Part shown: positions 24,879-62,024 of the stretch, piece by piece
Position numbering within the stretch: the stretch's first letter is position 1
How the letters are laid out: every line of letters begins with the position of its first letter
Virus record (IMG/VR): IMGVR_UViG_3300025098_005131
Origin: a virus
Lineage: Duplodnaviria > Caudoviricetes
Direction: 5' to 3' (one strand)
Length of the DNA stretch: 64,000 nt
Notes under the pieces: generated by a model
Databases searched by the model: none
Told to the model about the DNA's origin: nothing
What the model saw: only the letters and a program-made list of their open reading frames with translations
Made by a program: the position numbers and the translations under genes

Positions 24879-25565
24879 ATGGAAAACATTCAATCAAACA
24901 TTCAAGGAGACAACATGGAAACAACAACAATACAACAACTATTTCAGGAGTTCATTAACGATGGTGGTGAACCTAAAGTGACTTCATTCAAGAGACATCT
25001 TGATAAGTTGATTAATCAAGAGATTAAAGGTCTTTGTGGTCGCTCGGCGAAGGCTGGTCTCGTCGACGATTGGCGTAGCGAGGTGAAGGCCCGTTTCTCA
25101 GGTCGTGGGGCGAAGTGGGTTAAGGTATCTGTTAATGATATCCTTCCGACTCTCGAAGGATTTGATGATACAACTGAATATATGGGATGGGTTCAGACAG
25201 CGGGATTTGCGTGGATTCGTTTCGCTGGACCTCGCGTCGCGAATGGAAGTCATTGTGCGGCCTTTGAGGTTCGAACTGGTGGATCGACGATTGATCATCC
25301 TAAACAGCTTCACTACATTCCCGCTCAGTTGCTTGACGACAAGATCGAGCCTCTCAATTCGACTCCCCACGCGATGAAGCTTGAAGAGGTCGCGACGACT
25401 CCCGTAGTGGAGGAGCCTGAAGTAGAGGAAGAGGTTATCGAGCTTAGCGGTTACGAGTTAAACCCGGACGACGACGGCGGTTCAGCTTGGGCTGAAGATG
25501 ATGACGAGGACATGATGGGTGACATTGAGGACCTCATGGACGACGAGGACAACTTAGACTTCTAA
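24879..25565 (+). CDS. Unknown 'GRGAKW' family, paralog A, acidic tail
   Basis: RFSGRGAKWVKV, GFAWIRF and FEVRTGGSTIDHPKQLH. Likely start 24915 (AAGGAG SD). Confidence 0.85.
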   Translation: MENIQSNIQGDNMETTTIQQLFQEFINDGGEPKVTSFKRHLDKLINQEIKGLCGRSAKAGLVDDWRSEVKARFSGRGAKWVKVSVNDILPTLEGFDDTTEYMGWVQTAGFAWIRFAGPRVANGSHCAAFEVRTGGSTIDHPKQLHYIPAQLLDDKIEPLNSTPHAMKLEEVATTPVVEEPEVEEEVIELSGYELNPDDDGGSAWAEDDDEDMMGDIEDLMDDEDNLDF

Positions 25566-25695
25566 GGTGTTTTGGGTGGTGGTGGCTTCGTGGCGTCGTC
25601 TCGCTTCGTGTAAATAATAATACCTTAGGTTATAATATGACCATAAGGACAAACAAACTAAACAAACAACAACAACAACGTGAAAGGACTTCTAT

Positions 25696-26037
25696 TTGAG
25701 AAGTAACAGCACATTCCTTACCCTCATCGCTTCCTTTTGTCTCTCAGCAGTTGCTTACAACGTCGCTCAGCCGGTTGAGGTTCCTGTTCAACATCTTGAG
25801 TTTGATGACTATGTGATTCAACCTCGCGTCGAGACATATGTGTTTGATGACTATGTGATTCAATCTTCAGCTGAAGTTATTGACATGGACGAGGTGATCA
25901 TCATTTCGCAGGAGGACGAATCAGATGACGGTGACGGTGCAAACATTGACATGATGAATGCTAACTGGTGTCTCATCCACCCTGACGACGTGATCTGTCA
26001 AGATGCAGACGAGGAGGACGAAGTAGAAGGTTGCTAA
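25696..26037 (+). CDS. Acidic secreted/membrane-anchored protein
   Basis: Signal-like N-terminus; internal repeat FDDYVIQ x2; own promoter. Confidence 0.65.
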   Translation: MRSNSTFLTLIASFCLSAVAYNVAQPVEVPVQHLEFDDYVIQPRVETYVFDDYVIQSSAEVIDMDEVIIISQEDESDDGDGANIDMMNANWCLIHPDDVICQDADEEDEVEGC

Positions 26038-26149
26038 GACTCAGGGTGTCTACCCCTCGATGCGTCGTCTCTTAACGTGTAACTCTTTAAGAGATTAAGT
26101 ATAATATAACATAAGGTTTAACAAACAACAACGTGACGAAAGGTTCAAT

Positions 26150-26395
26150 ATGATCTTCATAACAGTTAATCAACGAGGTTACTCTGACTCTGAACTTTAT
26201 GGTCCATTCACTTCAGTTGACGAAGGGAAACGAAAGGTGACTGATGGTGTTGATCGAGGACATGATGGTGATGAGACCAAGTATACATTCTTCGAGATGA
26301 CAACTGACGGGATGAAGGAGATTGGTTACGTTCATCTTGACGATGAGTGTGAAGGTGACGAGGATAATCTAAGAAGTGAAGTGTTTTACAACTAG
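26150..26395 (+). CDS. Acidic hypothetical protein
   Basis: ORF track; promoter 26077 and AAAGG SD. Confidence 0.7.
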   Translation: MIFITVNQRGYSDSELYGPFTSVDEGKRKVTDGVDRGHDGDETKYTFFEMTTDGMKEIGYVHLDDECEGDEDNLRSEVFYN

Positions 26396-26460
26396 GATGT
26401 AACGACGTTAACGTGTAAGACGACGAAAGACAATGTATAATAAAACATAAGGAGGAACAA

Positions 26461-26652
26461 ATGACAGTTCAACAGCTAATCGAAAAGCTACAATCTTTAG
26501 ATCCTCACAACGAGGTGGTTATTGAGGTGAATCATGATGACATCGTTCTTCTGAAAGAAGACAGGATTGTTGAGGACGTTATTACACAGGATTATCGTCT
26601 CGCGACGCAAGAAGACGTAGAAACACGAAAGGTTATAACACTAAGAGTATGA
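26461..26652 (+). CDS. Small hypothetical protein (MTVQQLIEKLQ type)
   Basis: Promoter 26413; AAGGAGG SD. Confidence 0.75.
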   Translation: MTVQQLIEKLQSLDPHNEVVIEVNHDDIVLLKEDRIVEDVITQDYRLATQEDVETRKVITLRV

Positions 26653-26747
26653 TTACTTTTACTGAATCTGCGGCAAATGGTGGGCTTCTCTTCGCAAGTT
26701 TCTTTATGGCGACACTTCTATACGCCTACATTACAGATGCACTTTAA
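26649..26747 (+). CDS. 32-aa membrane micro-peptide
   Basis: MITFTESAANGGLLFASFFMATLLYAYITDAL*; ATGA overlap with the upstream gene. Confidence 0.55.
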   Translation: MITFTESAANGGLLFASFFMATLLYAYITDAL

Positions 26748-26756
26748 GGATAAACT

Positions 26757-26813
26757 ATGACTTTAATCTATATGCTACTACTACTTTTCATCATCACTCA
26801 ATTCAACAAATAA
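26757..26813 (+). CDS. 18-aa hydrophobic micro-peptide
   Basis: MTLIYMLLLLFIITQFNK*; AAGGA SD. Confidence 0.5.
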   Translation: MTLIYMLLLLFIITQFNK

Positions 26814-26824
26814 GGAGCAATCAC

Positions 26825-27058
26825 ATGGACATCGAAGTTATTCAAAATCACAGACGTCGCGCTGAACTCATCATTGACAATACACTACTTGCTAACGGCG
26901 TACAACCAACCGCATCGCTCATCGAGGAGTTTCTTTCTTTCTACGACTACAACGGATTAGCTGCAACAATCAACAATATCTACAGCTACTCAAAAACAGT
27001 TCTTCATTCACGTCACGAACAACCTTACTTCCAACTAAACTTAGTGACTCACCGTTAG
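26825..27058 (+). CDS. Hypothetical protein
   Basis: ORF track; AAGGAG SD. Confidence 0.7.
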   Translation: MDIEVIQNHRRRAELIIDNTLLANGVQPTASLIEEFLSFYDYNGLAATINNIYSYSKTVLHSRHEQPYFQLNLVTHR

Positions 27059-27163
27059 GACCCTTGGTGGCGTCGTCCCTCATCGTGTAACTTTCAAATA
27101 AGCTTAGTATAATATATCATAAGGCAACAAACAATCAATCAACCCAAACAAAGGATAATCAAT

Positions 27164-27373
27164 ATGATTAAAACTAAAAAAGTTAGAAGAAGAATAACAG
27201 ACAAACCAAGCACTTTAATCTGGAGTGAGGCAAACAAAAACGGCGGATATACTATCTTCCACGGCGTGAAGGGAACTGATACTAAAACTATCGTTGGCGG
27301 TGCAGCTTCTCGTGATTCTCTTGAATACAACATTCGTAAAGCTAAGCACAAGTACGGCTACAAACTAAGCTAA
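27164..27373 (+). CDS. Basic hypothetical protein
   Basis: Promoter 27085; AAAGGA SD. Confidence 0.7.
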   Translation: MIKTKKVRRRITDKPSTLIWSEANKNGGYTIFHGVKGTDTKTIVGGAASRDSLEYNIRKAKHKYGYKLS

Positions 27374-27482
27374 TGACTCGGGGTTACCACCCTGCATGGC
27401 GTCGTCTCTCCTCGTGTAAGATTTAAATAATCTTGGTATAATAAACCATAAGGCAACATCAACTAAATAAAGGATTTGATCT

Positions 27483-27635
27483 TGAAATACAATAAGATTC
27501 GAAAACAAATCAAAAATCTTTCAAACCGAGCAATGCATGAGGAGAACTTGACAAACTACAAAAAGGCTGATGAGCTTCGCAATCAGGCTTACTTCTTATC
27601 TCAGGTCTTGGAAAACAAATCAAGAGGGTTTTAAC
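27483..27635 (+). CDS. 50-aa hypothetical protein (TTG start, not in ORF track)
   Basis: MKYNKIRKQIKNLSNRAMHEENL...; follows promoter 27414 and AAAGGA. Confidence 0.5.
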
Positions 27636-27723
27636 TCCAAACGTGTAAGTCTCAAATAATCAAGTTATAATAAAACATAATCCAAACAAACAAACAATCA
27701 TTCAATCCAAAAGGATAACAAAT

Positions 27724-28386
27724 ATGGAAAACTCAAACAATCAATCAATCAACTCAAACGAGGTTCCTATGTCAGACATTCAATCAATCTTCCAAGCTTT
27801 CGTCGAGTCCGGTGGCGAACCAAAGGTTACAAGTTTCAAACGTCACCTTGATAAACTTATCAATCAAGAGATTAAGGCTCTTTGTGGTCGCTCATCCAAA
27901 ACAGGCGGCGATGATTGGAGAAGTGAACTCAAATCTAAGTTCGGAGGCCGAGGAGCGAAATGGGTCTTTGTCAGCCTTGAAAACATTAAACCTACTCTTG
28001 ATCGCCTCGCAACTGAAGGTATCGATATCGAAGATTATAATAAGTTTACTCAAGCTCACGGCCAAGCTTGGATTCGATTCAGCGGTCCTCGAATTGATAA
28101 TGGAGTTCAATCGGCAGCTTTCGAAGTTCGAACTGATGGGTCAACTATCGATCATCCAAAACAACTTCACTATGTCCCTGTAAGCGAGTTAGATGAGACC
28201 ATTACATTCATGAACACAACTCCGCACTCAATGAGAGTTGAAGAAGTTGCGAAGCCTCAAGAAGTAGAGGAAGAGGTCGAGGTTAAGCTCAGCGAAACTG
28301 AAGAGACTCCAGTAGTTGAAGAAGATTACGTTGATGTAATGGATGATATCGATGAGCTCATGGACTTCGAAGAGATGGACCTCTAA
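27724..28386 (+). CDS. Unknown 'GRGAKW' family, paralog B, acidic tail
   Basis: GGEPKVTSFKRHLDKLINQEIK shared with paralog A; KFGGRGAKWVFV; FEVRTDGSTIDHPKQLH. Confidence 0.85.
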   Translation: MENSNNQSINSNEVPMSDIQSIFQAFVESGGEPKVTSFKRHLDKLINQEIKALCGRSSKTGGDDWRSELKSKFGGRGAKWVFVSLENIKPTLDRLATEGIDIEDYNKFTQAHGQAWIRFSGPRIDNGVQSAAFEVRTDGSTIDHPKQLHYVPVSELDETITFMNTTPHSMRVEEVAKPQEVEEEVEVKLSETEETPVVEEDYVDVMDDIDELMDFEEMDL

Positions 28387-28513
28387 GGTTTAGGTCGATA
28401 TTGATTCGGCGTTGCCACCCTTGGTAGCGTCGTCCCGGGACGTGTAACTTTTACATACCTTAGATATAATATATCATAAGGCAAAACAATCAATCAATCA
28501 ACGAGGAGACAAT

Positions 28514-28807
28514 ATGTCTGTAACAAACAAAATAAAAGTGCAATGGGAGTTTGACATCGAGACCAATGAAGAGTTGCAGTCGCGACTAGGTCTTACTGAA
28601 GGTGATGTTGCTGAGATGCTTAGCGACGAGGATGATGCAGTAAAGCTTCACGATCTATGTTGTGATGAAATGGGTGTTCCTCGCTACGTGGACATGGATC
28701 TTTTCTTCGACAACCCGCACGCAGCAAGTGACGACCAGATTACAGACGCACTAAGCGACGAACACGGATGGCTAATCAATGAATGGCACTACGTGCAAAA
28801 ACGTTAA
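28514..28807 (+). CDS. Acidic hypothetical protein (similar to 61217-61429)
   Basis: KIKVQWEFD...DQITDALSDEHGWLI. Confidence 0.7.
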   Translation: MSVTNKIKVQWEFDIETNEELQSRLGLTEGDVAEMLSDEDDAVKLHDLCCDEMGVPRYVDMDLFFDNPHAASDDQITDALSDEHGWLINEWHYVQKR

Positions 28808-28877
28808 TCCACGTTGTATAATATATCATAATCCAAACAATAACATTCAATCAATCTTTTAATCAATCAGGAGCTTA

Positions 28878-29111
28878 ATGAGCGACTATCAATACCAAGA
28901 AATCTTCGAGACGTGGCGCAACAAAACATTGTCAGAAGGCTTTACCCTTAATCAATTCCGGAGTCGATATAACTTCTTTGTAGAACGTGACAATATATGC
29001 GAACTCACCAAAGCTGTAGGCGCAAAGATGGCTTACATGAGCCTCGTCAAACAGCATCAAGAAGAGCTTCGACTCGTGCAAAGTGAAATGGAGAACGTAA
29101 GATGGATATAG
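28878..29111 (+). CDS. Hypothetical protein
   Basis: ORF track; AGGAG SD. Confidence 0.65.
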   Translation: MSDYQYQEIFETWRNKTLSEGFTLNQFRSRYNFFVERDNICELTKAVGAKMAYMSLVKQHQEELRLVQSEMENVRWI

Positions 29112-29332
29112 TCAAATATACAAAAGAGTTTCTCTATCTCTTCTCAGGTATGACAGCTCTTTTTGCCTGTACGATCGGAATCATAGTTGTTTCTTTGGCA
29201 CCTTTCGGTTTATGCATTTATCTCGGCGACGTACTAGGGTATCACGGTGTGATCGCGATGGGAGCAACAGTTTCCGTATACGCTTTTTACTATATCATAG
29301 CACGTCGTTTCAATCTACTCGGGGAAGTATAA
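29102..29332 (+). CDS. Two-TM small membrane protein
   Basis: Two hydrophobic helices. Confidence 0.6.
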   Translation: MDIVKYTKEFLYLFSGMTALFACTIGIIVVSLAPFGLCIYLGDVLGYHGVIAMGATVSVYAFYYIIARRFNLLGEV

Positions 29333-29568
29333 TGAATGTTGATCATACACAAATCCTTACATGGCCAACTCCAACAGGCATCGCAGCGTCGAACAAAGTC
29401 ACTCAAACGGCGAGGATTAATAACTACCTTGCAACAACAAAAACCTTTCTGGCTGACGGAACGGAAGTTATACCAAATAGCGAAACACTCAAAATAATCC
29501 TTCAAGGCTGGGATGACTTTGGTGTTGAAGTTGTTATCTCTTCAGACTCTTACATTGTAAAGGACTAA
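29332..29568 (+). CDS. Hypothetical protein
   Basis: Likely start MNVDHTQ at 29332, within track ORF 29212-29568. Confidence 0.55.
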   Translation: MNVDHTQILTWPTPTGIAASNKVTQTARINNYLATTKTFLADGTEVIPNSETLKIILQGWDDFGVEVVISSDSYIVKD

Positions 29569-29572
29569 ATAT

Positions 29573-29752
29573 ATGATTGAAACTATTATGTCTGCAAACT
29601 TTTGGCTTAGTGCTCTTGTTCCTGTTTCTTTACTTGCATTGCCTATCATGCTTGTTGGCAAAGCAACTCCAGTTCGTTCTTTTATGGCTGCTGTTGTAAT
29701 CTATCTCATGATTATTCTTCTCTCATCATGCAATATACCTGGTCCATTCTGA
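29573..29752 (+). CDS. 59-aa two-TM membrane protein (not in ORF track)
   Basis: MIETIMSANFWLSALVPVSLLALPIMLVGK...LLSSCNIPGPF*; AAAGGA SD. Confidence 0.55.
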   Translation: MIETIMSANFWLSALVPVSLLALPIMLVGKATPVRSFMAAVVIYLMIILLSSCNIPGPF

Positions 29753-29959
29753 TTCGCTATGTCCACCCTACGGTGTCGTCCTAATCACTAGCAGTGACAT
29801 TTTGATCTACTTTTGCGTAGATCTGGTCGCTGCTTTTTTGTATTCAGAGTATGCTCAAGGGTATAACAGCTCATCCCGTCTAGCGTGTAATATTTACTTT
29901 TTTAGTGTATAATATATCATAAGGCAACACAAACAATCATTCAATTCAAAGGAATCCTC

Positions 29960-30250
29960 ATGGCTTCAATAAGAACAACTAAAATCGGCGATACTCTAAC
30001 AATCAAAAAGATAGCACAGATCTATGGCCATCACCCTAACGGAAGATTCCTCACCAATCACAGCTCACATCCTGATTGCGCATACCCAAAGGTTAATGAT
30101 ACCCAATACATCATACAACCTGGCACAAAACTCGCTGTTATTAATAAAGGCAAAGCTGAAACAAAGTTTAGAGAAAGCTATGTCACTGTAGTTCATAACC
30201 AACACGAATTCGATATCATGTCTTCAGACCTAAGAAGATTCTGCGATTAA
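29960..30250 (+). CDS. Hypothetical protein
   Basis: Promoter 29885; AAAGGA SD. Confidence 0.7.
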   Translation: MASIRTTKIGDTLTIKKIAQIYGHHPNGRFLTNHSSHPDCAYPKVNDTQYIIQPGTKLAVINKGKAETKFRESYVTVVHNQHEFDIMSSDLRRFCD

Positions 30251-30336
30251 CACTTATCGTGTAATATAGATCAATCCTGTTTTATAATATATCATAATCC
30301 AATACAAACAATCATTCATCCCAAAAGGAAACAAAC

Positions 30337-30690
30337 ATGAATAACGTTTTAAAAGAAAACACCTACTTCATTATCGATTATCGCAGCCTCCCTTCAGGCA
30401 TCGGATCTATCGTCTTTCCAGACGACAAGACAATACTCGTCACAGACGAAGAATGCGGACCAAAAAACATGGAAGAAGCAAAACAACATATCAAAAAAGA
30501 GTTTCTCCCATCAGATGTTTCTCACATTCCATTCAGCACATCTGAACACTACAAAGTCGGCCAATCAGCACTAAGCACTATCCTTGAACATCATAACGTC
30601 AAATACGTTTACGATTCTGAAATGGGATACGAATTCAACAACGGCGAAACTACATTCACTCTAAATCAATGGTTAAAGATGAGAGGTTAA
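30337..30690 (+). CDS. Hypothetical protein
   Basis: Promoter 30259; AAAGGA SD. Confidence 0.7.
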   Translation: MNNVLKENTYFIIDYRSLPSGIGSIVFPDDKTILVTDEECGPKNMEEAKQHIKKEFLPSDVSHIPFSTSEHYKVGQSALSTILEHHNVKYVYDSEMGYEFNNGETTFTLNQWLKMRG

Positions 30691-31097
30691 CATGACATTA
30701 GAACAACTAAACAAAGCTATCCACGACGAAAGACAGAGTCGCGGCCTTACTGGTCGCCTAGAAGACCTCATCAATAAACGCAACAAACTCTTAAAAGGTA
30801 AGTCATGATATACTTTACTACTTACTTCATAGGATTAGTCATCGGCTTCTTTGCAGGCTCCTTATTCACTAAAGCTGTCGAGCCTAAAGAAGAATACATT
30901 TCTCTCACTCCAAAAGGCCAAGACTATCTCGATAAACTAAATAACAGTGACTCAACCGAACAACCCTAACGTCTCGTCATCATCACTGCTGCAAACATTT
31001 TAATCAAACCATCAGCTAAAGTTACCTCCTCAATCGTGTAACCCTGTTTAATCTCTTTATATAATATATCATAACAACCTTCCAAAGGATTTACAAC

Positions 31098-31463
31098 ATG
31101 AATAATCAAATAAGTTTAACTCAATGGAATGAGCTCATCGAAACTGTTAAGAACTCACCTGTTACTAAAGTCCAAGCAGATGACACTCTATACATCAGCT
31201 CACGTAACTTCGGCAACTCTAAACGCTACTTCTGCTACGATAACTACGATCGATTCGATGTTCCAGGTCTAGACTTCATCATCTCAAACAACGATGAACT
31301 CGGAAAACTCACAGTCTACAGCGCTAGCGAACAAGCTAGAGCTCCTATCAGCTTCGAACAAGGTAAACAAATTGCCCGAAACCTCTTCAATGAATACGGT
31401 GACCAGATGGCAGAAGAGATCGTTTGTGAATGGGTTATGGAAGGCAACAACAGCACTTTCTAG
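31098..31463 (+). CDS. Hypothetical protein
   Basis: Promoter 31036; AAAGGA SD. Confidence 0.7.
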   Translation: MNNQISLTQWNELIETVKNSPVTKVQADDTLYISSRNFGNSKRYFCYDNYDRFDVPGLDFIISNNDELGKLTVYSASEQARAPISFEQGKQIARNLFNEYGDQMAEEIVCEWVMEGNNSTF

Positions 31464-31745
31464 TCAAGCTGCTCTGTCTCACGTAGCACAGCTTTGAATC
31501 AGCTTTCCCCGGGACAGAATTGAAAAAAATGTTAATGATAATGATTATCAATATCAGTACGCGTCTCGAGCTTAGTCGTGAGGGTAGTAGCCGTGAGGCA
31601 GAATAGAATCCTTACGTTAACGCTGTTTTGGTTTTTTGCGTCGCGATGATAGTTTGTTTGTATAAGTGTAGAAGTTTAACGTGTGTGTAAATTCGGCCAC
31701 TTGTTGATTAAGATAGGGTGGTATATGATAGAAGGAGAAGAGTGA

Positions 31746-32045
31746 GTGAAGAGAAGATATATTTTAGTGTTGGTATTGAGTTTATTGTGGAGTGGTTGTG
31801 GAGCGATGTTGGGTTCTTCGAATGGAGTGAAGAGGTATGAGATTGGGAGTGAGAAGAGTTATGAGGTGAGTTGTATGGAGGGGGGAGAAGAGGTTGTGTA
31901 TGAGTGGGTGAGAGTGAGGGAGGGGAGTTTAGCGTATGACGTTGAGAAGAGGGTGTGGGATTTTGTAGGGAAGAGGAAGAGAGATGGTAAGTTATTGAGG
32001 GTGATTAGTAGTAGTTGTAGGATGGAGATGGGGGATTTGATATGA
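31746..32045 (+). CDS. Lipoprotein (similar to 47026-47322)
   Basis: Lipobox WSGC; CMEGG...SSSC pattern. Confidence 0.65.
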   Translation: MKRRYILVLVLSLLWSGCGAMLGSSNGVKRYEIGSEKSYEVSCMEGGEEVVYEWVRVREGSLAYDVEKRVWDFVGKRKRDGKLLRVISSSCRMEMGDLI

Positions 32046-32242
32046 CGTATATGATTGGTGGAGTGTTAGGATTGGGGTTATTGATGTATGTATTAGTGAT
32101 GTTTTTGTTTTTGCGTGGGAAGAGTGGATTAGAGAGGGAGGTAGAGAGGAAGATGAAGTTGGGGATGGAGTTGCAGCGTAGTGGGAAGTTGAGGGAGTAT
32201 GGTGAGTTGATGAGGGAGATAGAGGAGTTGGAGGGGAAGTGA
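32042..32242 (+). CDS. Single-TM small protein
   Basis: N-terminal TM helix and amphipathic tail. Confidence 0.6.
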   Translation: MTYMIGGVLGLGLLMYVLVMFLFLRGKSGLEREVERKMKLGMELQRSGKLREYGELMREIEELEGK

Positions 32243-32341
32243 TTGTGTGTTTGTTATGAGATTTATCGAGTGTATATTGAGTATGCGAGAGAGTATAATA
32301 TAATATAGGGAATCAATCAATTATTTGAGAGGGGTTATGAT

Positions 32342-32749
32342 ATGGTTAGATCATTGGTAGAAGTAGAGTTTCATGAGATTAATCCGTTTGAAGAGATAGT
32401 GTATGTGCATGATCATTCTGAGCATAATATGTTGGGAGAGTTGCATACGAGGGAGAGGGGAGTGGAGGCAGTGACGTATGCGGGGAGCGTAGATCATGTA
32501 GAGAAGTTTGATTTGAGGGATGTGACGAAGACTTGGGATTCGCAGGTGAGGGTGGAGTGGGGATTTCATAAGGGAGAAGAGTTTGATGAGGTGTTGCATA
32601 TACCTGTTAATATAAGTCAGCAGCCTATATTGGGGAATTTAGTTTTGGTGAACTTATTGAAGGCGCATAATGTTGGGTATGTGACGTTAGGGAAGATTAA
32701 TGAGGATAAGTTTATGAAGTTAGAAGATTTCTGTGAGAATTATTTATAG
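32342..32749 (+). CDS. Hypothetical protein, paralog of the C-terminal part of 40115-40735
   Basis: DVTKTWDSQ...LHIPVNI...NVGYVTLG versus DITKVWDSQ...VHIPLNI...NVEFVSFG. Confidence 0.75.
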   Translation: MVRSLVEVEFHEINPFEEIVYVHDHSEHNMLGELHTRERGVEAVTYAGSVDHVEKFDLRDVTKTWDSQVRVEWGFHKGEEFDEVLHIPVNISQQPILGNLVLVNLLKAHNVGYVTLGKINEDKFMKLEDFCENYL

Positions 32750-32826
32750 GTGTAGGTTAGATTAACTTTGTATTATAATATACTATAAGGTACGTTCAAT
32801 CGATCATTCAATTAGAGGGATATATT

Positions 32827-34172: not shown

Positions 34173-34184
34173 AAGGGTAGTATC

Positions 34185-40114: not shown

Positions 40115-40735
40115 ATGACACTTTCAAGAGATAAATACGTTCCAAATAGTTTAGAAAACATCGAAAAGCTTACACGAAAAATTTTGGAAAGCATGGATTT
40201 CGATACAATGCGGGAGTCAGCTTACCAAGGTTTAATTAATCATTATACTGATAATGATCAATGTTTTGTTGAGGATTATTATAAGACATTTTCAGACGAA
40301 GATCCTGAGTTAAACGGTTTTCAAGAAGAAGAAGCTGATAAGATAATTTACTATCATGGTCATCATTCCAATCCATGTGTAGTAGGAGAAATCCACAAGC
40401 ACGAAACTGTAAAAATGAGTGATGGTTCAATGCACAAGGGTATTGAAGTTATCATAATAACACATGACATTATATGTGAAGACTATGATGATAACCTTAG
40501 CGACATTACCAAAGTCTGGGATAGTCAAACGCAATCTGAAGTTTGTAACAGACGATATGATACAGATCCAGATACATGTGTTCACATTCCCCTAAATATA
40601 GGTGAACATACCAATTTAAGCAATCAAGTCCTCAAGCAAATTTTATTAAATAACAATGTAGAGTTTGTATCTTTTGGTCGTAAAGATGATCTAACAAGTC
40701 TCAGCAATTTCTTAAAGAACAATTTAGGAGCATAA
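40115..40735 (+). CDS. Two-domain hypothetical protein; C-terminal domain paralogous to 32342-32749
   Basis: Shared motifs listed under 32342; promoter 40039. Confidence 0.75.
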   Translation: MTLSRDKYVPNSLENIEKLTRKILESMDFDTMRESAYQGLINHYTDNDQCFVEDYYKTFSDEDPELNGFQEEEADKIIYYHGHHSNPCVVGEIHKHETVKMSDGSMHKGIEVIIITHDIICEDYDDNLSDITKVWDSQTQSEVCNRRYDTDPDTCVHIPLNIGEHTNLSNQVLKQILLNNNVEFVSFGRKDDLTSLSNFLKNNLGA

Positions 40736-43343: not shown

Positions 43344-43427
43344 AGATTCTCTTGCGTGCAACTTAGATTAAATTCATATTATAATATACCATAAGGCAAC
43401 AACAATTAATCATTCAAAAGGTCTTAA

Positions 43428-43703
43428 ATGAAAAACAATTATTCAGCAAGCTTGGCATCTGATGTGATAAGAGGTAGCAGAAATTTAGGTAGAAATAGAG
43501 AACTAAATAATCTATCTTCAGATGACTTAATTAACTTAATTAAAGACTACGTTAACAAGTACGGTCAGCCTGAAAATTATAATGGCATGTTGGTTTGGTC
43601 AAATGTTTCAGGTAACACTTATAGTTTAAGTGCCTATAAAAACAACAAGCCTTTCAATCCAGAAGAATTAAATCTAAATAATGCTCTCTTAAGTGTAACT
43701 TAG
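43428..43703 (+). CDS. Hypothetical protein
   Basis: Flanked by near-identical promoter repeats at 43356 and 43693. Confidence 0.65.
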   Translation: MKNNYSASLASDVIRGSRNLGRNRELNNLSSDDLINLIKDYVNKYGQPENYNGMLVWSNVSGNTYSLSAYKNNKPFNPEELNLNNALLSVT

Positions 43704-43766
43704 ATCAACTTCATATTATAATATACCATAAGGCAACAACAATTAATCATTCAAAAGGACTTTATT

Positions 43767-44534
43767 ATGAATACCAACATTCAAAACATCAATACTAATA
43801 ATAACAACCAGCCTGTAGGGGTTTCCATGAACACAACAAATTCTTTGATTCAAGCACTTGTTACTCACTTTAATGATAATCCTCAAGGATTTACTTCTTA
43901 TCGAAAAGAAATTGAAAGCCTTCTCAAGGAAAATATCAAGCCTATTGCTTCTCGCAGTTCTAAAGTTGGTGATAACTGGCGTGCTGATCTTAAATCCAAG
44001 TTCAGCGGCCGAGGTGCTAAATGGGTCTTTGTTTCGCTTGAAAGCATCGAACAAACACTCGTTCAGCTTGAAACTAACGGCATTGATTGCGCTGACTATC
44101 GTAAAAACGTTGTGAAGCTTGGTAAGGCTTGGGTTCGATTTAATGGTGCTCGGGTTGACAGTGGTATTAAATGTGCTGCATTTGAAGTTCGTACTGAAGG
44201 CTCAACCATTGATCACCCCAAGCAGGTTCATATGATTAATGTTGATGACTTGGATGATTTAATTGAGGTTATGCCTGGTACGCCAAAAGGTTTAAAGCTT
44301 GAAGAAGACGCAGCTCCAATGCCTAGAATTTCTAAGTCTAAAGTAGAGAACAAACCAAAATCAAAACCAGCTGTTAGCGAGCTTGAAGCTTTAAGTGAAG
44401 AAATTAATCTAGAGCTTCGAGAGCCAGAACTAAATGACACTCCAGAAAGTAACGATCCTGCAGACTGGGAAGCATTCTTAGCTTCAGAAGGTCTTATTGA
44501 TGATGACTTTGATATGATTGATGACGAGATCTAA
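43767..44534 (+). CDS. Unknown 'GRGAKW' family, paralog C, acidic tail
   Basis: KFSGRGAKWVFV; GKAWVRF; FEVRTEGSTIDHPKQVH; ends DDDFDMIDDEI. Confidence 0.85.
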   Translation: MNTNIQNINTNNNNQPVGVSMNTTNSLIQALVTHFNDNPQGFTSYRKEIESLLKENIKPIASRSSKVGDNWRADLKSKFSGRGAKWVFVSLESIEQTLVQLETNGIDCADYRKNVVKLGKAWVRFNGARVDSGIKCAAFEVRTEGSTIDHPKQVHMINVDDLDDLIEVMPGTPKGLKLEEDAAPMPRISKSKVENKPKSKPAVSELEALSEEINLELREPELNDTPESNDPADWEAFLASEGLIDDDFDMIDDEI

Positions 44535-44607: not shown

Positions 44608-44680
44608 CCTCTTGTAGCTCAGTGGTAAGAGCAGTATTCTTAAAAAGTAAAGGTCGGCAGTTCAATCCTGCCCAAGAGGT
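44608..44680 (+). tRNA. Atypical tRNA, anticodon TAA but short variable loop (possible pseudo-tRNA)
   Basis: Acceptor CCTCTTG/CAAGAGG; D arm GCTC/GAGC; T arm GGCAG-TTCAATC-CTGCC; loop CTTAAAA; weak anticodon stem; U73. Confidence 0.7.
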
Positions 44681-44730
44681 CTCTGTTTTACGACAGGATT
44701 AATCTTATTCAATACAAAGGAAATTATATT

Positions 44731-50018: not shown

Positions 50019-50100
50019 GCTCTGATGGTGGAACGGTATACACAGAAGACTTAAAATCTTCCGCCTTTAAGGCTTGCGGGTTCGAATCCCGCTCGGAGCA
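50019..50100 (+). tRNA. tRNA-Leu(TAA)
   Basis: GAAGA-CTTAAAA-TCTTC; long variable arm; A73. Confidence 0.95.
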
Positions 50101-53520: not shown

Positions 53521-53611
53521 TTTTTTCCTTGTGTGTAAAATAAAAATATTTATGTTATAATATAAAAAACAATAAAGATATTAAATTTAAATTAAAAGAA
53601 AAATTTAAAAA

Positions 53612-55101: not shown

Positions 55102-55193
55102 CAAACTTTAATAATTCATAATAGACAGTTATAGATATAAAACGATATTAAAACTAATCACGTATTAATCCAGTTTTAAAGGACCGAAAATAA

Positions 55194-56177
55194 ATGAATA
55201 ATCATATCAATTCCATCAGACTTCCTAACCATATTCAATACGTGCTTTCTACATTATTTAAGACAATTGATGTTTATGATTACTTAAAAGAAGAAGCTTG
55301 GATTGCCGGGGGTTTTCCCAGAATTATTAGTAAAGAACTTAACTCTAATACGTCAGAGACTTTAGGAAAAGTTTATAGATATTTTTATAACATGGGTGAT
55401 ATCGACATTTTTTCAAGCAATAAAGATAAAGTTAATGATATCACCAACGTAATTAGTAATAGAGTTAAAGCTATTAGAGAAGAAATAATGTATGACGGCT
55501 TTTGTCTTAATAAAGTAAGTGATGCAATTAAAGACGTAAACAGTTTTGAACTACCTTTTACTTTTAATTACGAAAGAAATTTAACTGCTTTAAATAAAAT
55601 CTGCAAGAAAAACAAAGTTAAATATGTAGATGAAGCCCTAAAAGTAGACTTAGAGTTTAGTGTAATACAGACACAGTTTGTTAATAAGTTTATATTTAAA
55701 GACATTAATGAATGCTTTGATAATTTTGACTTTTCTAATTCTAAACTAGCAATATCATTCAAAAGTGGAGAATATTATTTACATTATACAGACTTAGCAG
55801 AGTTTTACAATTCTAGAAACATTTTGAATATTGAGAAAGTTGAGTCACCATATCTTTCAAGTAGAATAACAAAGTATACAAGAAAATACATGTTTGATAT
55901 TGATGATAACAAAAATTTTAGAAATCAGATCAAAGATTATCTATATAAGATACTGCAAGGAAAGTGGCCTGATGTATATAATGGTGCATTCGATATGTCT
56001 AGTTCTGTAAAGAATCTTCATTCTAGTATCGAGCTAGACAGCAAAGATCTTTGCCTTTTCCTGGGAATGTTTACGCACATGAACAGAGTAGCAAGTAAAA
56101 GTGGGTATGGTTTTATGCGTAGTAAAATTATTGAAGTTGACTGGGCAAAACATGAAATGAGTCAAAAAAATGGTTAA
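55194..56177 (+). CDS. Nucleotidyltransferase (CCA-adding / poly(A) polymerase head-like)
   Basis: AWIAGGFPR; GDIDIF; QFV; NFDFSNSK. Confidence 0.7.
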   Translation: MNNHINSIRLPNHIQYVLSTLFKTIDVYDYLKEEAWIAGGFPRIISKELNSNTSETLGKVYRYFYNMGDIDIFSSNKDKVNDITNVISNRVKAIREEIMYDGFCLNKVSDAIKDVNSFELPFTFNYERNLTALNKICKKNKVKYVDEALKVDLEFSVIQTQFVNKFIFKDINECFDNFDFSNSKLAISFKSGEYYLHYTDLAEFYNSRNILNIEKVESPYLSSRITKYTRKYMFDIDDNKNFRNQIKDYLYKILQGKWPDVYNGAFDMSSSVKNLHSSIELDSKDLCLFLGMFTHMNRVASKSGYGFMRSKIIEVDWAKHEMSQKNG

Positions 56178-56957
56178 AAAAGAAGAAATTAAAACAAAGT
56201 TAGAAAAGTGTCCGTATTGTAAAAAGAAGACAGTTACATTCTATCTGCATGAATGTGAAAGATCAATGTCAGAGTATTACGGTTGCAATAAGTGTGACGA
56301 CTGGTGTGTTCACTGCAATAAGGAGTGGGCTGATGGAACAAATAAAAAAGGGTAAAATTTATATTCTTGATAATGGTTTTGATGACATCAAGATTGTTAT
56401 CGCCTTAGAAACTGAAAGAGAATTGCGTTATGAAGAGGACGTTGTATATAATATGTCTTTAGACTTTGTCGAAGTTCTTATAGAAAATAAAGTAGAGACA
56501 ACATTAGTTTCAGACTTACATAAAATTACAGGAGTTAAGTATAATGATTAGTGTAGTATTCGGAATTACACATCCCAGACTATGTGAAGAGTTACCAGAA
56601 GGTAAACATAAGTTTTTTGATATTGGTGAGACAAAGTCTTCTACGTTGATATTAAAAAACTTAATGAAAGATTTGCTGGATTATGACAGCCATCCAGATA
56701 TTGATTTAGTTTTTAGCGACTTTTGTAAAAGCAGAGTATTAAATAACGAAAGCAATTACCATCACATAAGACTTAAAAATATATTCAAAGAGTTTAGCAA
56801 ATGGTACAATGGAACAAAGGTCTCCGCTACTAAAATGTATTTAATTAAAAGAGAAGGAAACAAAGTCTTAGATGTATATGAAAGATGGAATACTTATAGA
56901 GAAAATCCATTCTTTGTTCCGAAAAAAGCAAAGCCTAAAAAGACTTTTTATGTGTAA
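56170..56957 (+). CDS. Three small hypothetical ORFs (56170-56355 Zn-ribbon CxxC, about 56333-56551, 56544-56957)
   Basis: CPYC, CNKC and CVHC in the first ORF; overlapping starts and stops. Confidence 0.6.
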
Positions 56958-56999
56958 TTTATATAATAAAAACTTATAATAGTCTATAAGGAGAAAATA

Positions 57000-58133
57000 G
57001 TGATTCAATTAAATAAAATATACTTTGATGGTAAAGGTTATATACAAAGGCGTATAGACTTAAATGATCTGCCTGCAAATGATCTTATCAAGATCTGCTC
57101 GAGATTTAATTTTACGCCTGTTGATAGTATATCATTTGAAAACTATGAACCACAAACTTTTTGTGACATTACAATAAATGACTACTTCATTCAATGCGTT
57201 TCAATTAAACACATCTATACAGACTCTAAAAAGTCGACTCATACTGTATTGTATCCTTCACACAATCCAAGTAGACTTTATTAAATAGAAAGAAATATAA
57301 ATGCAGCAAGTACAAAGTAAACATAAATGGATTCCAGTCGTAGTTGATTATCTATATGTTGCTGGTGATAAACTAGAAAACATTTTTGCTCATGCAAAAG
57401 TTATACATGGTTATCGTGAAGATGGATATGAGTATTACGAAATAATGATTCCATCACACAACTTTTTTACTTGCTATATTGATGCAGATAAAATAGAGGA
57501 ATTTCTATGAAAATCGACAAACTTAGTATTTTATCTGGTATTTTTTTCTGTTTAACTTTCATACCTGTTTCAATGGTTATGATAGGAACAACACTTACTA
57601 TTTTAGGAATTTTATAGTTAAAATGACAGAAGAAAACATTAAAGAGTTTTTTTACAGTATCAATAGTTTGAATCTTAATAAAAAACAAAAAAAAAGAATA
57701 CTACAGCTTTTTCAAGTAAGAGGTATTAATAAGAAAAACAAAGTAATGACTTACTGTGAATTCAAGAAAATTCTTTTAAATAGACAAGGCAAGATAACTA
57801 GTTTAGTATTAGGGCCAAAGTGGAATAGACTTGTTTTTGCTGATATAGACATAGAGTTATAAAATGAAAGATAAAGATGCAAACGAAGTTCAAAAACAAG
57901 TTATTGACGAAATTAAAGAAAGTGGTGCAATATTAGTTTATATAAATGTTGACGGAAACATTACTCTGTTAACGTCAGGCAATATAACTAAATTGCAATC
58001 AAAGACTGCTGAGCGTATGTTAATTTCTGTAAATCCTTCAATTATTTTAAGTATCATAATATGGATGGAAATTAACTTTGTTAAGCTAGAAGATACAGTT
58101 TATGGGTTTCTTAGGAAGATATTCAAAGTGTAA
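57000..58133 (+). CDS. Small hypothetical ORFs (57000-57284, 57301-57510, 57623-57862, 57864-58133)
   Basis: ORF track; promoter 56952. Confidence 0.6.
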
Positions 58134-58189
58134 TTTGTACAATTAATGTTTATAATATAATGTAAACAACAATCATTGAGGACAAAAAT

Positions 58190-58744
58190 ATGTCAAAAAA
58201 TAAATTTAAAAAACAAATTCAAGAAAAGTACAAAGGTAGAGGAAATACGTGGGTAAAGATTCCAAAAGACTCTCCTGCTTTTCAAAGTTTTTTAAGTCTT
58301 ATTCCTAGTTGTAGTGATGGAACTATGTTTCTTGATCATGTTAATCGCGAAGGTTTTGGTTGGGCTAGATTTTCCAAAGTCGAAGGAGATGAATCAAATC
58401 CTGTTGAATTATTTGAAGTTAGATATAAAGGATCTAGGTTTGATCATCCTGAAAATATTTTAAACGTTCCTCATTCTGTGTCTAAAGACTTTCCTTTACT
58501 AGGCAATACTCCTGTTAAGATTGATATCGAAGTACTTCCAGAAAACAGGAAAAGCAAAAAACAAGTAAATACTTTCAAACGTAAGATTGTTAAAAACAGT
58601 GAAGAAGTAATTGAAGACTATCAAAGTATAGAACAAGAAATTACAATTATTAAAGAAGCAGCACTAACTAAACCTTCAAACAAAGAGCTTGAAAACTGGT
58701 ATGAGTTTTTAAAGCTTAACGGGCTTTATGAGGAAAATGTTTGA
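58190..58744 (+). CDS. Unknown 'GRGAKW' family, paralog D
   Basis: KYKGRGNTWVKI; GFGWARF; FEVRYKGSRFDHPE; LGNTP; C-terminal WYEFLKLNGL resembles WEAFLASEGL of paralog C. Confidence 0.8.
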   Translation: MSKNKFKKQIQEKYKGRGNTWVKIPKDSPAFQSFLSLIPSCSDGTMFLDHVNREGFGWARFSKVEGDESNPVELFEVRYKGSRFDHPENILNVPHSVSKDFPLLGNTPVKIDIEVLPENRKSKKQVNTFKRKIVKNSEEVIEDYQSIEQEITIIKEAALTKPSNKELENWYEFLKLNGLYEENV

Positions 58745-58906
58745 CTTTTATACTTTAACTGCGTTTGTTATACTATTTAGTTATTTGCATTCTTTCTACA
58801 ACCATAGAAAAAGAACAGACGTTTACTTTATATTTTTATTTACAGAACTTACTTTATTGTTTACTTATATTAACTTCCAAAGCTTTTTTAAATAAAGGAC
58901 TTAGCT

Positions 58907-59239
58907 ATGACACAATGGGTTGAAATCAGACAAGGTGATACTATTCACTTCAAAGAAAAGTCTGGAAAAGGATCAGTTGTATTTACTTCTAACAACGGAA
59001 ACTATTTTATGCCGGCAAAAGTCGGCATGAGAATTAAAGGTGTTGCAAAGCCTATTTTGAAAAATGAAGAGTTTATCTTTAGCCAAAGCACAGTTCAGTC
59101 TGTTTCAGGTGCAACTCGTGTTGTTAAATGTGAGTTATTAAGACTTTCTGATAATTCTAACTTCTTTGTATCAGAAATGGACTTAATGTCATACTTTTCT
59201 AAATCAAACAAAAGCAGTCTAGGCGGACACGTTTATTAA
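58907..59239 (+). CDS. Hypothetical protein
   Basis: ORF track; AAAGGA SD. Confidence 0.65.
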   Translation: MTQWVEIRQGDTIHFKEKSGKGSVVFTSNNGNYFMPAKVGMRIKGVAKPILKNEEFIFSQSTVQSVSGATRVVKCELLRLSDNSNFFVSEMDLMSYFSKSNKSSLGGHVY

Positions 59240-59248
59240 GGAATAAAC

Positions 59249-59506
59249 ATGAAATATCTTTACGTAATATGTTTTATAATTATAACTTTGTATTCTTGTA
59301 TATCGAAAAGAGAATATGATAGAGTGTTAAATGAAAACAAAGATATCATGAAAACAATTGAGAAAAACGACCTATTAACACAAGATGTAAGACAGCTTGA
59401 ATTTAAGATTAAAAACATTGAGTTTAGCTTACAAATGTGTGAAATAAAATTAAGAAAGCAAGATAGAAAACTTGTTGAATGTATAAACATGCGAGGTTGC
59501 AAATGA
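59249..59506 (+). CDS. Coiled-coil lipoprotein
   Basis: Lipobox LYSC; heptads. Confidence 0.6.
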   Translation: MKYLYVICFIIITLYSCISKREYDRVLNENKDIMKTIEKNDLLTQDVRQLEFKIKNIEFSLQMCEIKLRKQDRKLVECINMRGCK

Positions 59507-59733
59507 TTAGATCTAGCGATGAACTTATAGATAGAAAAATAGAAATAGACTTAAGAGGCAGAGATGGTAATGCTTTTGTTTTATTAGGATATGTGGACAC
59601 AATTGGCGAGCAAATCAACATACCAAAAAGAGTTAGAAACGACATTAAAAAAACAATGATGATGGGTAATTATGATCAGTTGATTAATACTTTTGATATT
59701 TGGTTTGGTAACTATGTCGACCTCTACAGATGA
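59503..59733 (+). CDS. Conserved-type phage hypothetical protein
   Basis: IEIDLRGRDGNAFVLLG...GNYDQLINTFDIWFG. Confidence 0.7.
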   Translation: MIRSSDELIDRKIEIDLRGRDGNAFVLLGYVDTIGEQINIPKRVRNDIKKTMMMGNYDQLINTFDIWFGNYVDLYR

Positions 59734-59989
59734 TTTCTATTTAAATCCTGGTGATATGATATGGGTTCACTTAAAAGGTCCAGACCAAAATTATGGCCAT
59801 GGTGAAGTTAAAGAAGTTTGGTTTGATGAAGAAATCAAAGAAGAGCTTTTTTGCTTTCATTGTTTAGTTAACGGTGGTTATAGAATGGGGAAAACATCTG
59901 AGCTAATAGAGAAACCAAACGCAAGAATGGTTTCAAAACTCTTACAGTCAAGAAAAGAATTCAATGAGATAATGAAGGAAAGAAGATAA
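59693..59989 (+). CDS. SH3-like hypothetical protein
   Basis: LNPGDMIWV...GHGEVKEV. Confidence 0.6.
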   Translation: MIFGLVTMSTSTDDFYLNPGDMIWVHLKGPDQNYGHGEVKEVWFDEEIKEELFCFHCLVNGGYRMGKTSELIEKPNARMVSKLLQSRKEFNEIMKERR

Positions 59990-60050
59990 TAAAGTGTAAC
60001 TCTTAAAATGTAGTGTTATAATAATAAAAACAAGGAAAAGGAATATTAAA

Positions 60051-60671
60051 ATGGACATTCAATCAATCAGAAAAATTATTTTCCCAAAAGTAAATGATAT
60101 CATTGCTAAGCTTGAAGAAGATCAACACGAAATTAAACTAACATTACTTCGAGAAATATTTAATGATGCAATCAATAGTCATCTAAACATTAGTCATACA
60201 AGCAATGTAAGTATTAAAGCTATGTTTTCAGGTAGAGGGCGTGCTTGGGCAAAAGTTAATGTAGACGATAATAACCCAGCCTGGGTCGAAATAAAAAACT
60301 CTTTAAGTCATGAGATATCAACATCTGTCAGTAGTTCAAATATGTTTGCAGAATGTAGTAATATGATTGATATATTTGAGAGTGCTGGGTTTGCATGGAT
60401 AAGATTTTCTTCTTCCTCGAAAGGATTTTCAAAATTTCAGATAAGAACAAAAGGTTCAAAGCTAGAAGACCATATAAAAGTAAGAATAGAAAATACAGAT
60501 TTATTAAATAATAATGTAGTCAATCTTGAAGGAGTTCCTCATAATCTAGGATTAGAAACAGGAATCTTTGAAAACAAAAAATGCATAAAAGAAATTATCA
60601 ACATTCCTGTTGAAACTAAAGACTTAGATGCAGTAGGTATTATAAGACTAGAAGACTTGCTAGATGCCTGA
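60051..60671 (+). CDS. Unknown 'GRGAKW' family, paralog E
   Basis: MFSGRGRAWAKV; GFAWIRFS; FQIRTKGSKLEDH; LEGVPHNLGLE. Confidence 0.8.
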   Translation: MDIQSIRKIIFPKVNDIIAKLEEDQHEIKLTLLREIFNDAINSHLNISHTSNVSIKAMFSGRGRAWAKVNVDDNNPAWVEIKNSLSHEISTSVSSSNMFAECSNMIDIFESAGFAWIRFSSSSKGFSKFQIRTKGSKLEDHIKVRIENTDLLNNNVVNLEGVPHNLGLETGIFENKKCIKEIINIPVETKDLDAVGIIRLEDLLDA

Positions 60672-60879
60672 GTTAGTGGTTGGTGAACTTGTTTTATTTA
60701 AATCACCTATGTATCAAAAAGGTTTATTGTGTTTAATAATTTCTATTGACAAGATATATAATATCCCTACTAAGGATTATTTTCTTCAGTACAATTTGTT
60801 TTGTCCAGAATCTATTCATAAATTTAGAATCTGGAATAGTTCTTGTAAAAATTCATCCAAGATAGAAAAGGTAAATTAA
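60664..60879 (+). CDS. Small hypothetical protein
   Basis: ORF track. Confidence 0.5.
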   Translation: MPELVVGELVLFKSPMYQKGLLCLIISIDKIYNIPTKDYFLQYNLFCPESIHKFRIWNSSCKNSSKIEKVN

Positions 60880-60880
60880 T

Positions 60881-61165
60881 ATGTCAAAGTGTGCTCGATG
60901 TACAACCTGTACTGCTGGTATTATGTGCCAATGTGGTAAATCAAAAAAGAAAGAAAGATCAAGCGTAAATCATCCTGATCATTATATGAAGACATCAGGC
61001 CATGAAGTCATCGACGTGATTGATGCATGGCGTCTTGATTTTAATTTAGGAAATGCAGTTAAATATATTGGTAGAGCAGGAAAAAAGAATCCAGATAAAG
61101 CTGTAGAAGATCTTGAAAAAGCTGTCTGGTATATTACTCACGAAATTAATTCTTTAAAAAAGTAA
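60881..61165 (+). CDS. DUF3310-type protein
   Basis: VNHPDHY...EVIDVI...FNLGNAVKYIGRAGKK...EDLEKAVWYI. Confidence 0.9.
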   Translation: MSKCARCTTCTAGIMCQCGKSKKKERSSVNHPDHYMKTSGHEVIDVIDAWRLDFNLGNAVKYIGRAGKKNPDKAVEDLEKAVWYITHEINSLKK

Positions 61166-61216
61166 AAACAAATACAATTTTTATGTTATATATAGACTCA
61201 AAATAGGAGATTTAAT

Positions 61217-61429
61217 ATGATTAAAGTTAAGAAAATTGTTTGGTCGTTTGATGGAACAGACTTTGAAGATTGTGATTACGAAGAATCAAGAAAGATTGCA
61301 GTATTACCTAAGTCGTTAAAAATAAATGAAGATGATATTGATAGCGACGCGCAAGAAGAAGATATCTTTGAATATCTTGAATCTATTTACGGATTTGAAG
61401 TTGAATCAGTAGTTTTCGAAGAGGACTAA
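61217..61429 (+). CDS. Acidic hypothetical protein (similar to 28514-28807)
   Basis: IKVKKIVWSFD...LPKSL...IFEYLESIYGFEV. Confidence 0.7.
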   Translation: MIKVKKIVWSFDGTDFEDCDYEESRKIAVLPKSLKINEDDIDSDAQEEDIFEYLESIYGFEVESVVFEED

Positions 61430-61478
61430 ACGTGTATTAACATTAATTTTGTTTTATAATAACAAAAAAAAGGAAATT

Positions 61479-62024
61479 ATGAAAAACAAAATTAAAGAAA
61501 AATTTAGTGGTGTAAAACATAAATGGATATACTTTCATACTGATACTGTTGAGTTTCAGCATATTCTAGACAAAATAACAATTGCCATTCATGAAAAAAG
61601 ATTTTCTTCAAAGAAAGCAATAACGCTTATTAAGTCTTTTAAGCTTCATGAAAAAGCTTTTATAAAATTTATAAAAACATCAGGCAGGAAAAAATTTGTT
61701 TGTGTCTGCAATATTATCGACAAGGAAAATAACAAATTAGAAGTTATCTTAAAACCAGAAACCCTTATTAACGCCAATATGCTTTCTAATACGCCTAAGG
61801 CATTGAAGTTATATAAGACAGATGAAAAAAACAAAGGACAATGGAAAAAGCCAGACGATGGATTTGTTGATCCAGTTCAATATCCTTTAGTTGAAGAAGA
61901 GCTTACAGAACTTGGATATGCAATGTACAAAGACTGGACTGAAGAGGTTGCTGCTTCTGGCTTGAGTAGCACTGATTATTATAGAAAGATTTGTGGGACG
62001 CTTAAATTCTATCAGAGAGGATAA
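61479..62024 (+). CDS. Possible distant 'GRGAKW' family member F
   Basis: IKEKFSGVKHKWIYF; LSNTPKALKL. Likely start 61479 (AAGGA SD) because the track start overlaps the promoter. Confidence 0.55.
   Translation: MKNKIKEKFSGVKHKWIYFHTDTVEFQHILDKITIAIHEKRFSSKKAITLIKSFKLHEKAFIKFIKTSGRKKFVCVCNIIDKENNKLEVILKPETLINANMLSNTPKALKLYKTDEKNKGQWKKPDDGFVDPVQYPLVEEELTELGYAMYKDWTEEVAASGLSSTDYYRKICGTLKFYQRG

Follow-up and report, generated by a model that had tools for sequence, protein, structure and literature searches.

The stretch analyzed here, a window of 64,000 nucleotides from an uncultured, AT-rich marine phage (Duplodnaviria; Caudoviricetes; IMG/VR record IMGVR_UViG_3300025098_005131), harbors six dispersed copies of one protein family, referred to below as paralogues A to F and all encoded on the plus strand. 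All six open reading frames (ORFs) were confirmed, at 24879–25565 (A, P0001, 228 aa as read), 27724–28386 (B, P0002, 220 aa), 43767–44534 (C, P0003, 255 aa), 58190–58744 (D, P0004, 184 aa), 60051–60671 (E, P0005, 206 aa) and 61479–62024 (F, P0285, 181 aa from the ATG at 61479). A pattern scan located their promoters, also on the plus strand and with exact coordinates, at 24845–24873, 27643–27671, 43693–43722, 58128–58156, 59994–60022 and 61432–61460, respectively; that of A consists of GTGTAA, a 17-nt spacer and TATAAT, that of C has an 18-nt spacer, and that of F carries GTGTAT as its -35 hexamer. Paralogues A and B are monocistronic, with the next promoters at 25608 and 28442, respectively.

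The six proteins have in common a core of about 111 residues, which is flanked by different N- and C-terminal parts. A is composed of an N-terminal helical hairpin, a barrel core and an acidic tail ending in DNLDF, and B, which is 59% identical to A, has the same layout with a tail ending in EEMDL. C carries a predicted dimerisation hairpin (residues 21–56) and the barrel core (70–180), followed by a basic linker, a W-x-x-F-L helix (231–240) and an acidic tip ending in MIDDEI. D is a minimal form without the N-terminal hairpin, in which a basic linker connects the core (1–115) to a C-terminal W-x-x-F-L helix (164–176), modelled with a predicted local distance difference test (pLDDT) score of about 97. 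In E, N-terminal helices precede a core whose insert is longer, and the short tail ends in LEDLLDA; F has a highly diverged core, from which GRG and W..RF have been lost and in which TP..LKL and a C-terminal DW....SGL are kept.

A phmmer search against all 512 six-frame ORFs of the window linked A to E mutually at expectation values (E) from 1e-5 to 1e-70, and matched them to no ORF beyond each other. With a hidden Markov model (HMM) built from A to E, F was the next best ORF in the window (E 7.8e-4), the following ORF being at 0.64. A total of 59 F orthologues were obtained from the protein database, and the hhalign comparison of 28 F orthologues with the 106-member family alignment gave a probability of 97.5% and an E of 7.5e-12 over 106 columns, that is, the whole core; the family profile also matched the F orthologues of two related phage genomes at 1e-11 and 2e-12. 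Since these comparisons agree, we conclude on sequence grounds that all six ORFs are homologous, with F as an extreme divergent member. A preliminary description of this DNA had proposed such a family with F as its weakest member, and had named a profile alignment separating D to F as the result that would speak against it; homology was found instead. The motifs it quoted as common to the six, FxGRGxxW, GxAWxRF, FEVRxxGS..DHP and (T/V)P, are all present in A to E, but in F they occur only in the degenerate forms FSGVKHKW, KAFIKF and NTP.

The divergence among the copies appears to be old. A complete relative, G001 (239,550 bp with direct terminal repeats), contains five copies at 206.8, 210.2, 222.1, 234.2 and 236.6 kb, in the same order, with the same promoter array and at the right genome end, and a second relative, G002, also has five. 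One-to-one orthologues of C, D and F were identified in G001 with 58%, 44% and 69% identity, respectively, A and B match a pair in G001 that groups together, and no orthologue of E was found there. A quick maximum-likelihood tree revealed starred clades for F, E and A/B, a grouping of C with its G001 orthologue at full support, a D clade at 92% and several further clades without a member in the window. By these sequence comparisons, the copies are anciently diverged and separately conserved subfamilies, which fits a specialisation to different partners. The identical stretch that A and B had been noted to share is indeed present and comprises 22 residues, whose 66 nt differ at 17 positions, all synonymous; because of these synonymous differences, the identity has been kept by selection and not by recent conversion.

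This is a real, well-conserved family that lacks known relatives. The six ORFs gave no match in Pfam, PHROGs, NCBIfam or PADLOC (defence models at E up to 0.01), and no match recurring in more than one member was observed when the 106 members were searched against Pfam and PHROGs. The family is likewise absent among the PDB sequences, it was matched neither by tblastn against 50,697 phage records nor by megablast against isolated phages, and the ESM Atlas features yielded no match for it. Specific profiles were also negative: the PF00436 profile of single-stranded DNA-binding proteins (SSBs) matched none of the six at E up to 1 and none of the 106 members at E up to 0.01, the gp32 profile PF08804 matched none of the six, and neither the CarD_TRCF profile PF02559 nor Pfam WYL matched the six or the 106 members. 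The absence of any known domain, as first described, is thus confirmed across sequence databases and isolated phages, and a characterised housekeeping protein was met neither by sequence nor by Foldseek against the PDB, BFVD, AFDB clusters and Swiss-Prot at E ≤0.001. The longer members P0254, P0282 and P0142, which are possible fusions, contain no informative Pfam domain. A single representative of the 106 gave a match to Pfam Response_reg (PF00072; E 3.7e-9) and was not found among the 22 representatives scanned singly and four other family matches; in another family match, P0148, the core is duplicated in tandem.

In a database of 5.8 billion proteins, paralogue C has 449 relatives with up to 98% identity, all unnamed and from marine assemblies, Tara among them. 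When 1.84 billion representatives were searched exhaustively with a profile, 171 clusters, defined at the 50% identity level, were detected at E ≤0.001, and 126 at ≤1e-10. In addition, DNA of the window phage or its close relatives is contained in seawater and marine metagenomes of several studies. When the genomes of 185,579 prokaryote species were scanned with a pattern, one contig was returned, CALCNB010000146.1 (L040; 14.9 kb, from a Tara sample), which harbors an A/B-type gene of 63% identity within a metagenome-assembled genome labelled uncultured Cellvibrionales. The contig probably belongs to a phage and was binned together with a bacterium; it is at most a weak hint of the host group. 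As the scan yielded only this contig, the family appears from sequence to be essentially restricted to phages, and marine.

Two independent structures, of C and D, were modelled with AlphaFold2 from the 106-sequence alignment, with pLDDT of 95–98 over residues 70–180 of C and 11–120 of D. The order of elements is the same in both models, namely a helix, strand 1, two inserted helices, a long hairpin of strands 2 and 3, strand 4, a short helix and strand 5. According to these models, the core is likely a small barrel of the SH3/Tudor/Sm class, preceded by an N-terminal helix and interrupted between strands 1 and 2 by an insert of two helices, while any more specific assignment of the predicted fold to a family is unproven. 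Full structural alignment against 48,161 PDB representatives gave a best Z of 5.0 for C (DUF1653, 3be3, with a root-mean-square deviation of 3.6 Å over 65 residues) and of 4.7 for D. The nearest structures of both models were recurrently small barrels, including DUF1653, the RID of Mfd, CarD and CdnL, the Tudor domains of UvrD and PcrA, Hfq, KOW and the RecD2 SH3 domain, with the WYL domain of DriD with single-stranded DNA (ssDNA), CAP-Gly and the biotin ligase C-terminal domain as further neighbours. Barrels of the SH3/Tudor/Sm class (PF02559 RID, UvrD/PcrA Tudor, Hfq, KOW, WYL and DUF1653) are the only recurrent structural neighbours of the family, with which they share the N-terminal helix, the five bent strands and the short helix before the last strand; however, the family differs from them in the roughly 30-residue insert that separates strands 1 and 2, in the lack of sequence similarity and in a motif set of its own. 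Hfq aligned at Z 3.4–3.6 over 61–65 residues, with the order of elements in agreement and the two-helix insert foreign to the Sm fold, and the DriD C-domain with ssDNA at Z 3.6–3.7 over 72–77 residues. A winged helix-turn-helix, our first reading of the element order in model C, was ruled out, as no such protein appeared in the fold searches and the strands form a five-stranded barrel.

Small barrels of the SH3/Tudor/Sm class often bind RNA, ssDNA or RNA polymerase. The last of these raises the possibility that the paralogues are modulators of the host RNA polymerase, whose Tudor-like barrel, comparable to CarD, CdnL, Mfd and the UvrD C-terminus, would dock on the beta subunit and redirect or shut off host transcription, possibly also helping the GTGTAA promoters. 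In both models, the Mfd RID, CdnL, CarD and the UvrD C-terminal domain bound to the polymerase lobe were retrieved at Z 3.3–4.4, and the ESM Atlas shape search with model C returned CarD_TRCF_RID (PF02559) clusters in four of ten rows, all atlas matches having a template modelling (TM) score <0.4 by query. The position of the paralogues as first genes of promoter units in a transcription-dense array would agree with such a role. Nevertheless, superposition on the Mfd, CdnL and CarD RID at Z 3.3–4.4 lies inside the noise range quoted by the tool, the PF02559 profile finds a sequence match in 0 of the 106 members, and model D retrieved generic Tudor, SH3 and RimP rows, so that a polymerase modulator is, in our judgment, very unlikely.

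Within the 106 representatives, the invariant or nearly invariant positions (in C numbering) are F79, G81, R82, G83, W86, W122, R124, F139, E140, R142, G145, S146, T172, P173 and E179, which amount to a core set of three Arg, two Trp, two Phe, two Glu and the Gly-Ser and Thr-Pro loops. The invariant Arg, Ser and Glu were also considered as the R-S-E motif of ADP-ribosyltransferases; this was ruled out, as neither the spacing nor the fold is compatible and the structure searches matched nothing of this kind.

In model C, residues 21–56 form two helices, and this N-terminal hairpin is present in A, B, C and E and absent from D and F. When two copies of residues 18–182 of C were modelled together, a score of 0.60 was obtained, against 0.01 for the best control. 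Three runs shared at least 72% of their contacts, and the pLDDT of the partner was at least 82. In the calibration of the tool, 20 of 30 solved homodimers and 1 of 23 solved monomers attained this mark, counts that apply only roughly to the present run, for which our own alignment was used. The interface comprises residues 23–62 of both copies in a four-helix arrangement, and so lies in the N-terminal hairpin and not in the barrel; a symmetric dimer through the hairpin is thus predicted for A, B, C and E. The segment of C that constitutes this predicted interface (residues 13–68) resembles the TraM tetramerisation module and the dimerisation/docking (D/D) module of PKA at Z 3.9–4.0, but the resemblance is weak, generic to any two-helix hairpin and without sequence relation. 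In the hairpin interface, the 22 residues identical in A and B correspond to the loop and helix 2, and A and B might share a partner or pair with each other.

At the C-terminus, the family carries interchangeable peptide modules. The acidic tails reported for A, B and C were borne out, with net charges of -25, -18 and -15, respectively, against a family median of -7. A strongly acidic end was found in 45 of the 106 representatives; the last three residues include a hydrophobic one in 41 of these, and 31 end on F, L, I, M or V, with DLDSAF, DTDAF, SLFGEF, LFGDL and DDMF as recurring tips. The acidic tail with a hydrophobic tip occurs in A, B and C and not in D, E or F. A second module, an amphipathic W-x-x-F-L...G-L helix modelled at pLDDT 89–97, was detected in 29 of the 106 representatives and is present in C, D and F; a Lys/Arg-rich linker follows the core in the same three paralogues and often precedes this helix. 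We take the acidic tails with their hydrophobic tips to resemble the docking tips of E. coli SSB and T7 gp2.5 and the T4-type clamp-binding peptides, as a lead only. Searches of G001 and G002 for a clamp detected neither DnaN (PF00712) nor a gp45-type clamp (PF09116, PF02916); a tail that binds a clamp of the phage itself is therefore unsupported.

Exposed Trp, Phe and Arg together with an acidic tail that has a hydrophobic end had suggested the layout of ssDNA- or RNA-binding proteins. A true SSB-type function would mean that the barrel coats ssDNA or RNA, that the acidic tail, folding back onto the binding surface, interacts with enzymes of replication or recombination, and that the paralogues serve different DNA transactions. 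Bacterial SSB, T7 gp2.5 and T4 gp32 resemble the predicted layout of the family in having an oligomeric binding core, a disordered acidic tail and a hydrophobic or aromatic docking end, to which the family ends DLDSAF, DTDAF, SLFGEF, NLDF and EEMDL would correspond. The tails with hydrophobic tips in A, B, C and 41 of the 106 representatives, the invariant Arg, Trp and Phe, the predicted dimer, and the weak likeness to the DriD WYL domain with ssDNA (Z 3.6–3.7) and to Hfq (Z 3.6) all agree with this explanation, as does the fact that no PF00436 SSB was found in G001 or G002. However, both relatives encode a gp32-type SSB (PF08804, above the Pfam cut-off) at G001:C1:76240-76755 and G002:C1:194162-194686, so a missing replicative SSB needs no explaining. 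The modelled topology, a helix and a five-stranded SH3/Sm-like barrel with an insert, is not recognisable as an oligonucleotide/oligosaccharide-binding (OB) fold, and no SSB appeared in the top 50 structural rows. Moreover, the core is electrically neutral and matches neither PF00436 nor PF08804, and half of the paralogues (D, E and F) lack the acidic tail. To our knowledge, there is no precedent for six replicative-type SSBs in one phage. The tail part of the suggested layout is confirmed and common in the family; SSB-type nucleic-acid binding by the family is weakened as a proposal, and we regard the full SSB-type function as unlikely.

The placement of each paralogue as the first gene after a promoter was reproduced for all six and is kept in 32 of 32 related loci having upstream sequence, as well as in the complete relative G001. 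The promoter element, GTG(T/C)AN-N17/18-TATAAT, has 37 copies on the plus strand (24325–61460) and one on the minus strand, with a spacer of 17 nt at 24.3–29.9 kb and from 46 kb on, and of 18 nt at 28.8–43.7 kb. The same array in G001, with 30 copies on the plus strand and none on the minus strand, fills the last 34 kb beside the terminal repeat. Among the 83 array genes (non-overlapping plus-strand ORFs), 34 (41%) have a promoter within 120 nt upstream, and the chance of finding six of six genes promoter-proximal is about 0.005, assuming independent placement. All six paralogues do have their own promoter, but as a distinguishing mark this had been overstated, since 37 promoters head about 41% of the array genes and a promoter of one's own is only partly special. 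The array of small genes is probably the first wave of expression. Contigs from RNA libraries span 43786–44174 of gene C at ≥95% identity; these are short, come from two RNA runs and are blind to level, strand and timing, and the signal is weak, with DNA carry-over not excluded.

We tentatively favour, at somewhat less than even confidence, the explanation that the family consists of first-wave hub or adaptor proteins, in which a ligand common to all barrels is coupled to paralogue-specific partners via the tails. The six proteins, specific to this phage lineage, would be made from their own strong sigma-70-type promoters within the small-gene array, and all barrels would bind the same ligand through the invariant Arg/Trp patch; single-stranded nucleic acid is the most likely candidate, and a host protein such as RNA polymerase a less likely one. 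The different tails would recruit or titrate different partner proteins, in the manner of the C-terminal tip of bacterial SSB or T7 gp2.5. Because the proposed barrel ligand is shared and the tails differ, each paralogue would thereby link one shared target to a partner of its own as the host is taken over. Several points weigh against this explanation. No structural match exceeds Z 5.0, a level that, according to the note of the tool, can mean a shared arrangement only; the CarD/TRCF RID obtained with model C did not recur in the atlas search with model D, which gave generic Tudor, RecD2-SH3 and RimP; and the core is neutral rather than basic, with a median net charge of -0.5 and an isoelectric point of 6.6. 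The predicted dimer is expressed as a model confidence, the tail motifs are short and acidic, which makes their likeness to SSB tips or clamp-binding peptides a tentative one, and the 'early' timing would follow from promoter type and gene content.

The same array and tails might also suit anti-defence decoys or sponges. In such proteins, host nucleases or defence sensors would be jammed by tails mimicking DNA or an SSB tip, or a nucleotide signal would be sequestered in the Arg/Trp pocket; the paralogues would track different host defences. A multi-copy, fast-diverging, phage-restricted family in a probable first-expressed region, with strongly acidic tails and an invariant Arg/Ser/Trp set in which a ligand bearing phosphate could be held, is what might be expected of them. 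However, no known anti-defence protein was present among the structural matches, and the subfamilies are conserved across distant relatives and not patchy, which fits a core infection function better than an arms-race accessory gene; this explanation is accordingly considered improbable. An equally speculative extension of the adaptor explanation would be that a dimeric Arg/Trp barrel, an undescribed elaboration of the small barrel, binds single-stranded nucleic acid or the host polymerase, while end-peptides imitating the SSB tip and other docking peptides capture or disable host replication, repair and defence proteins, the six separately promoted genes thus providing graded takeover adaptors.

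Large uncultured phages abound in the ocean, and most of the genes that they express first have no explanation yet. The family described here is the largest paralogue family of the window, its separate subfamilies are kept across the lineage, and its high-confidence models match nothing solved. Being small and soluble-looking, its members offer a tractable entry point, with a dimer, a ligand patch and docking tails as testable predictions. If it is true that the tails imitate host docking peptides, one phage scaffold would have been diversified to reach several host targets; if they do not, what has been obtained is still a new family of domains that merits both a Pfam entry and a structure.

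Most of the array promoters run into CATAAGG and then into a CA-rich leader (CAATCAATCA-like). The first 12–20 codons of A, B, C and E (24879–24915, 27724–27769, 43767–43827 and 60051–60070, respectively) consist of this repeat, which is elsewhere untranslated leader, and in all four an in-frame ATG with a better Shine-Dalgarno sequence lies downstream of the leader-like codons. The annotated starts of these four paralogues may be too far upstream, most clearly in A, where the in-frame ATG at 24915 is the likelier start, because ATG 24879 lies only 5 nt past the -10 box and AAGGAG precedes 24915. Alternatively, the CA-rich repeat may be a translation enhancer within the coding region. Upstream of C, in the region 43344–43756, seawater DNA contigs (metagenomic, at an 85% likeness threshold) were observed in which the promoter repeats at 43356 and 43693 are joined, skipping from 43417 to 43693 and thus lacking the 91-codon ORF at 43428–43703, and many contigs match the promoter repeat only and then diverge. 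This is consistent with gain or loss of cassettes via recombination between promoter repeats.

In the first 24 kb, genes for tail fibre, PhoH and helicase lie on the minus strand, the nearest relatives of the helicase being from jumbo phages with about 30% identity, and from 24.3 kb on the plus strand carries the small-gene array and six tRNAs. The G+C content ranges from 24% to 36% before 24 kb, from 39% to 44% at 24–32 kb and from 30% to 33% beyond, so that paralogues A and B sit inside the G+C-richer block, and the GC skew rises abruptly to +0.59 at 32–34 kb. Two genes for tRNA-Leu(UAA) were found, one isolated and directly 3' of paralogue C (44608–44681) and the other (50019–50100) inside the tRNA cluster at 49.4–50.6 kb. 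The sole other paralogue pair in the window is formed by the ORFs at 32342–32749 and 40115–40735, with 32% identity over 143 residues (E 1e-13).

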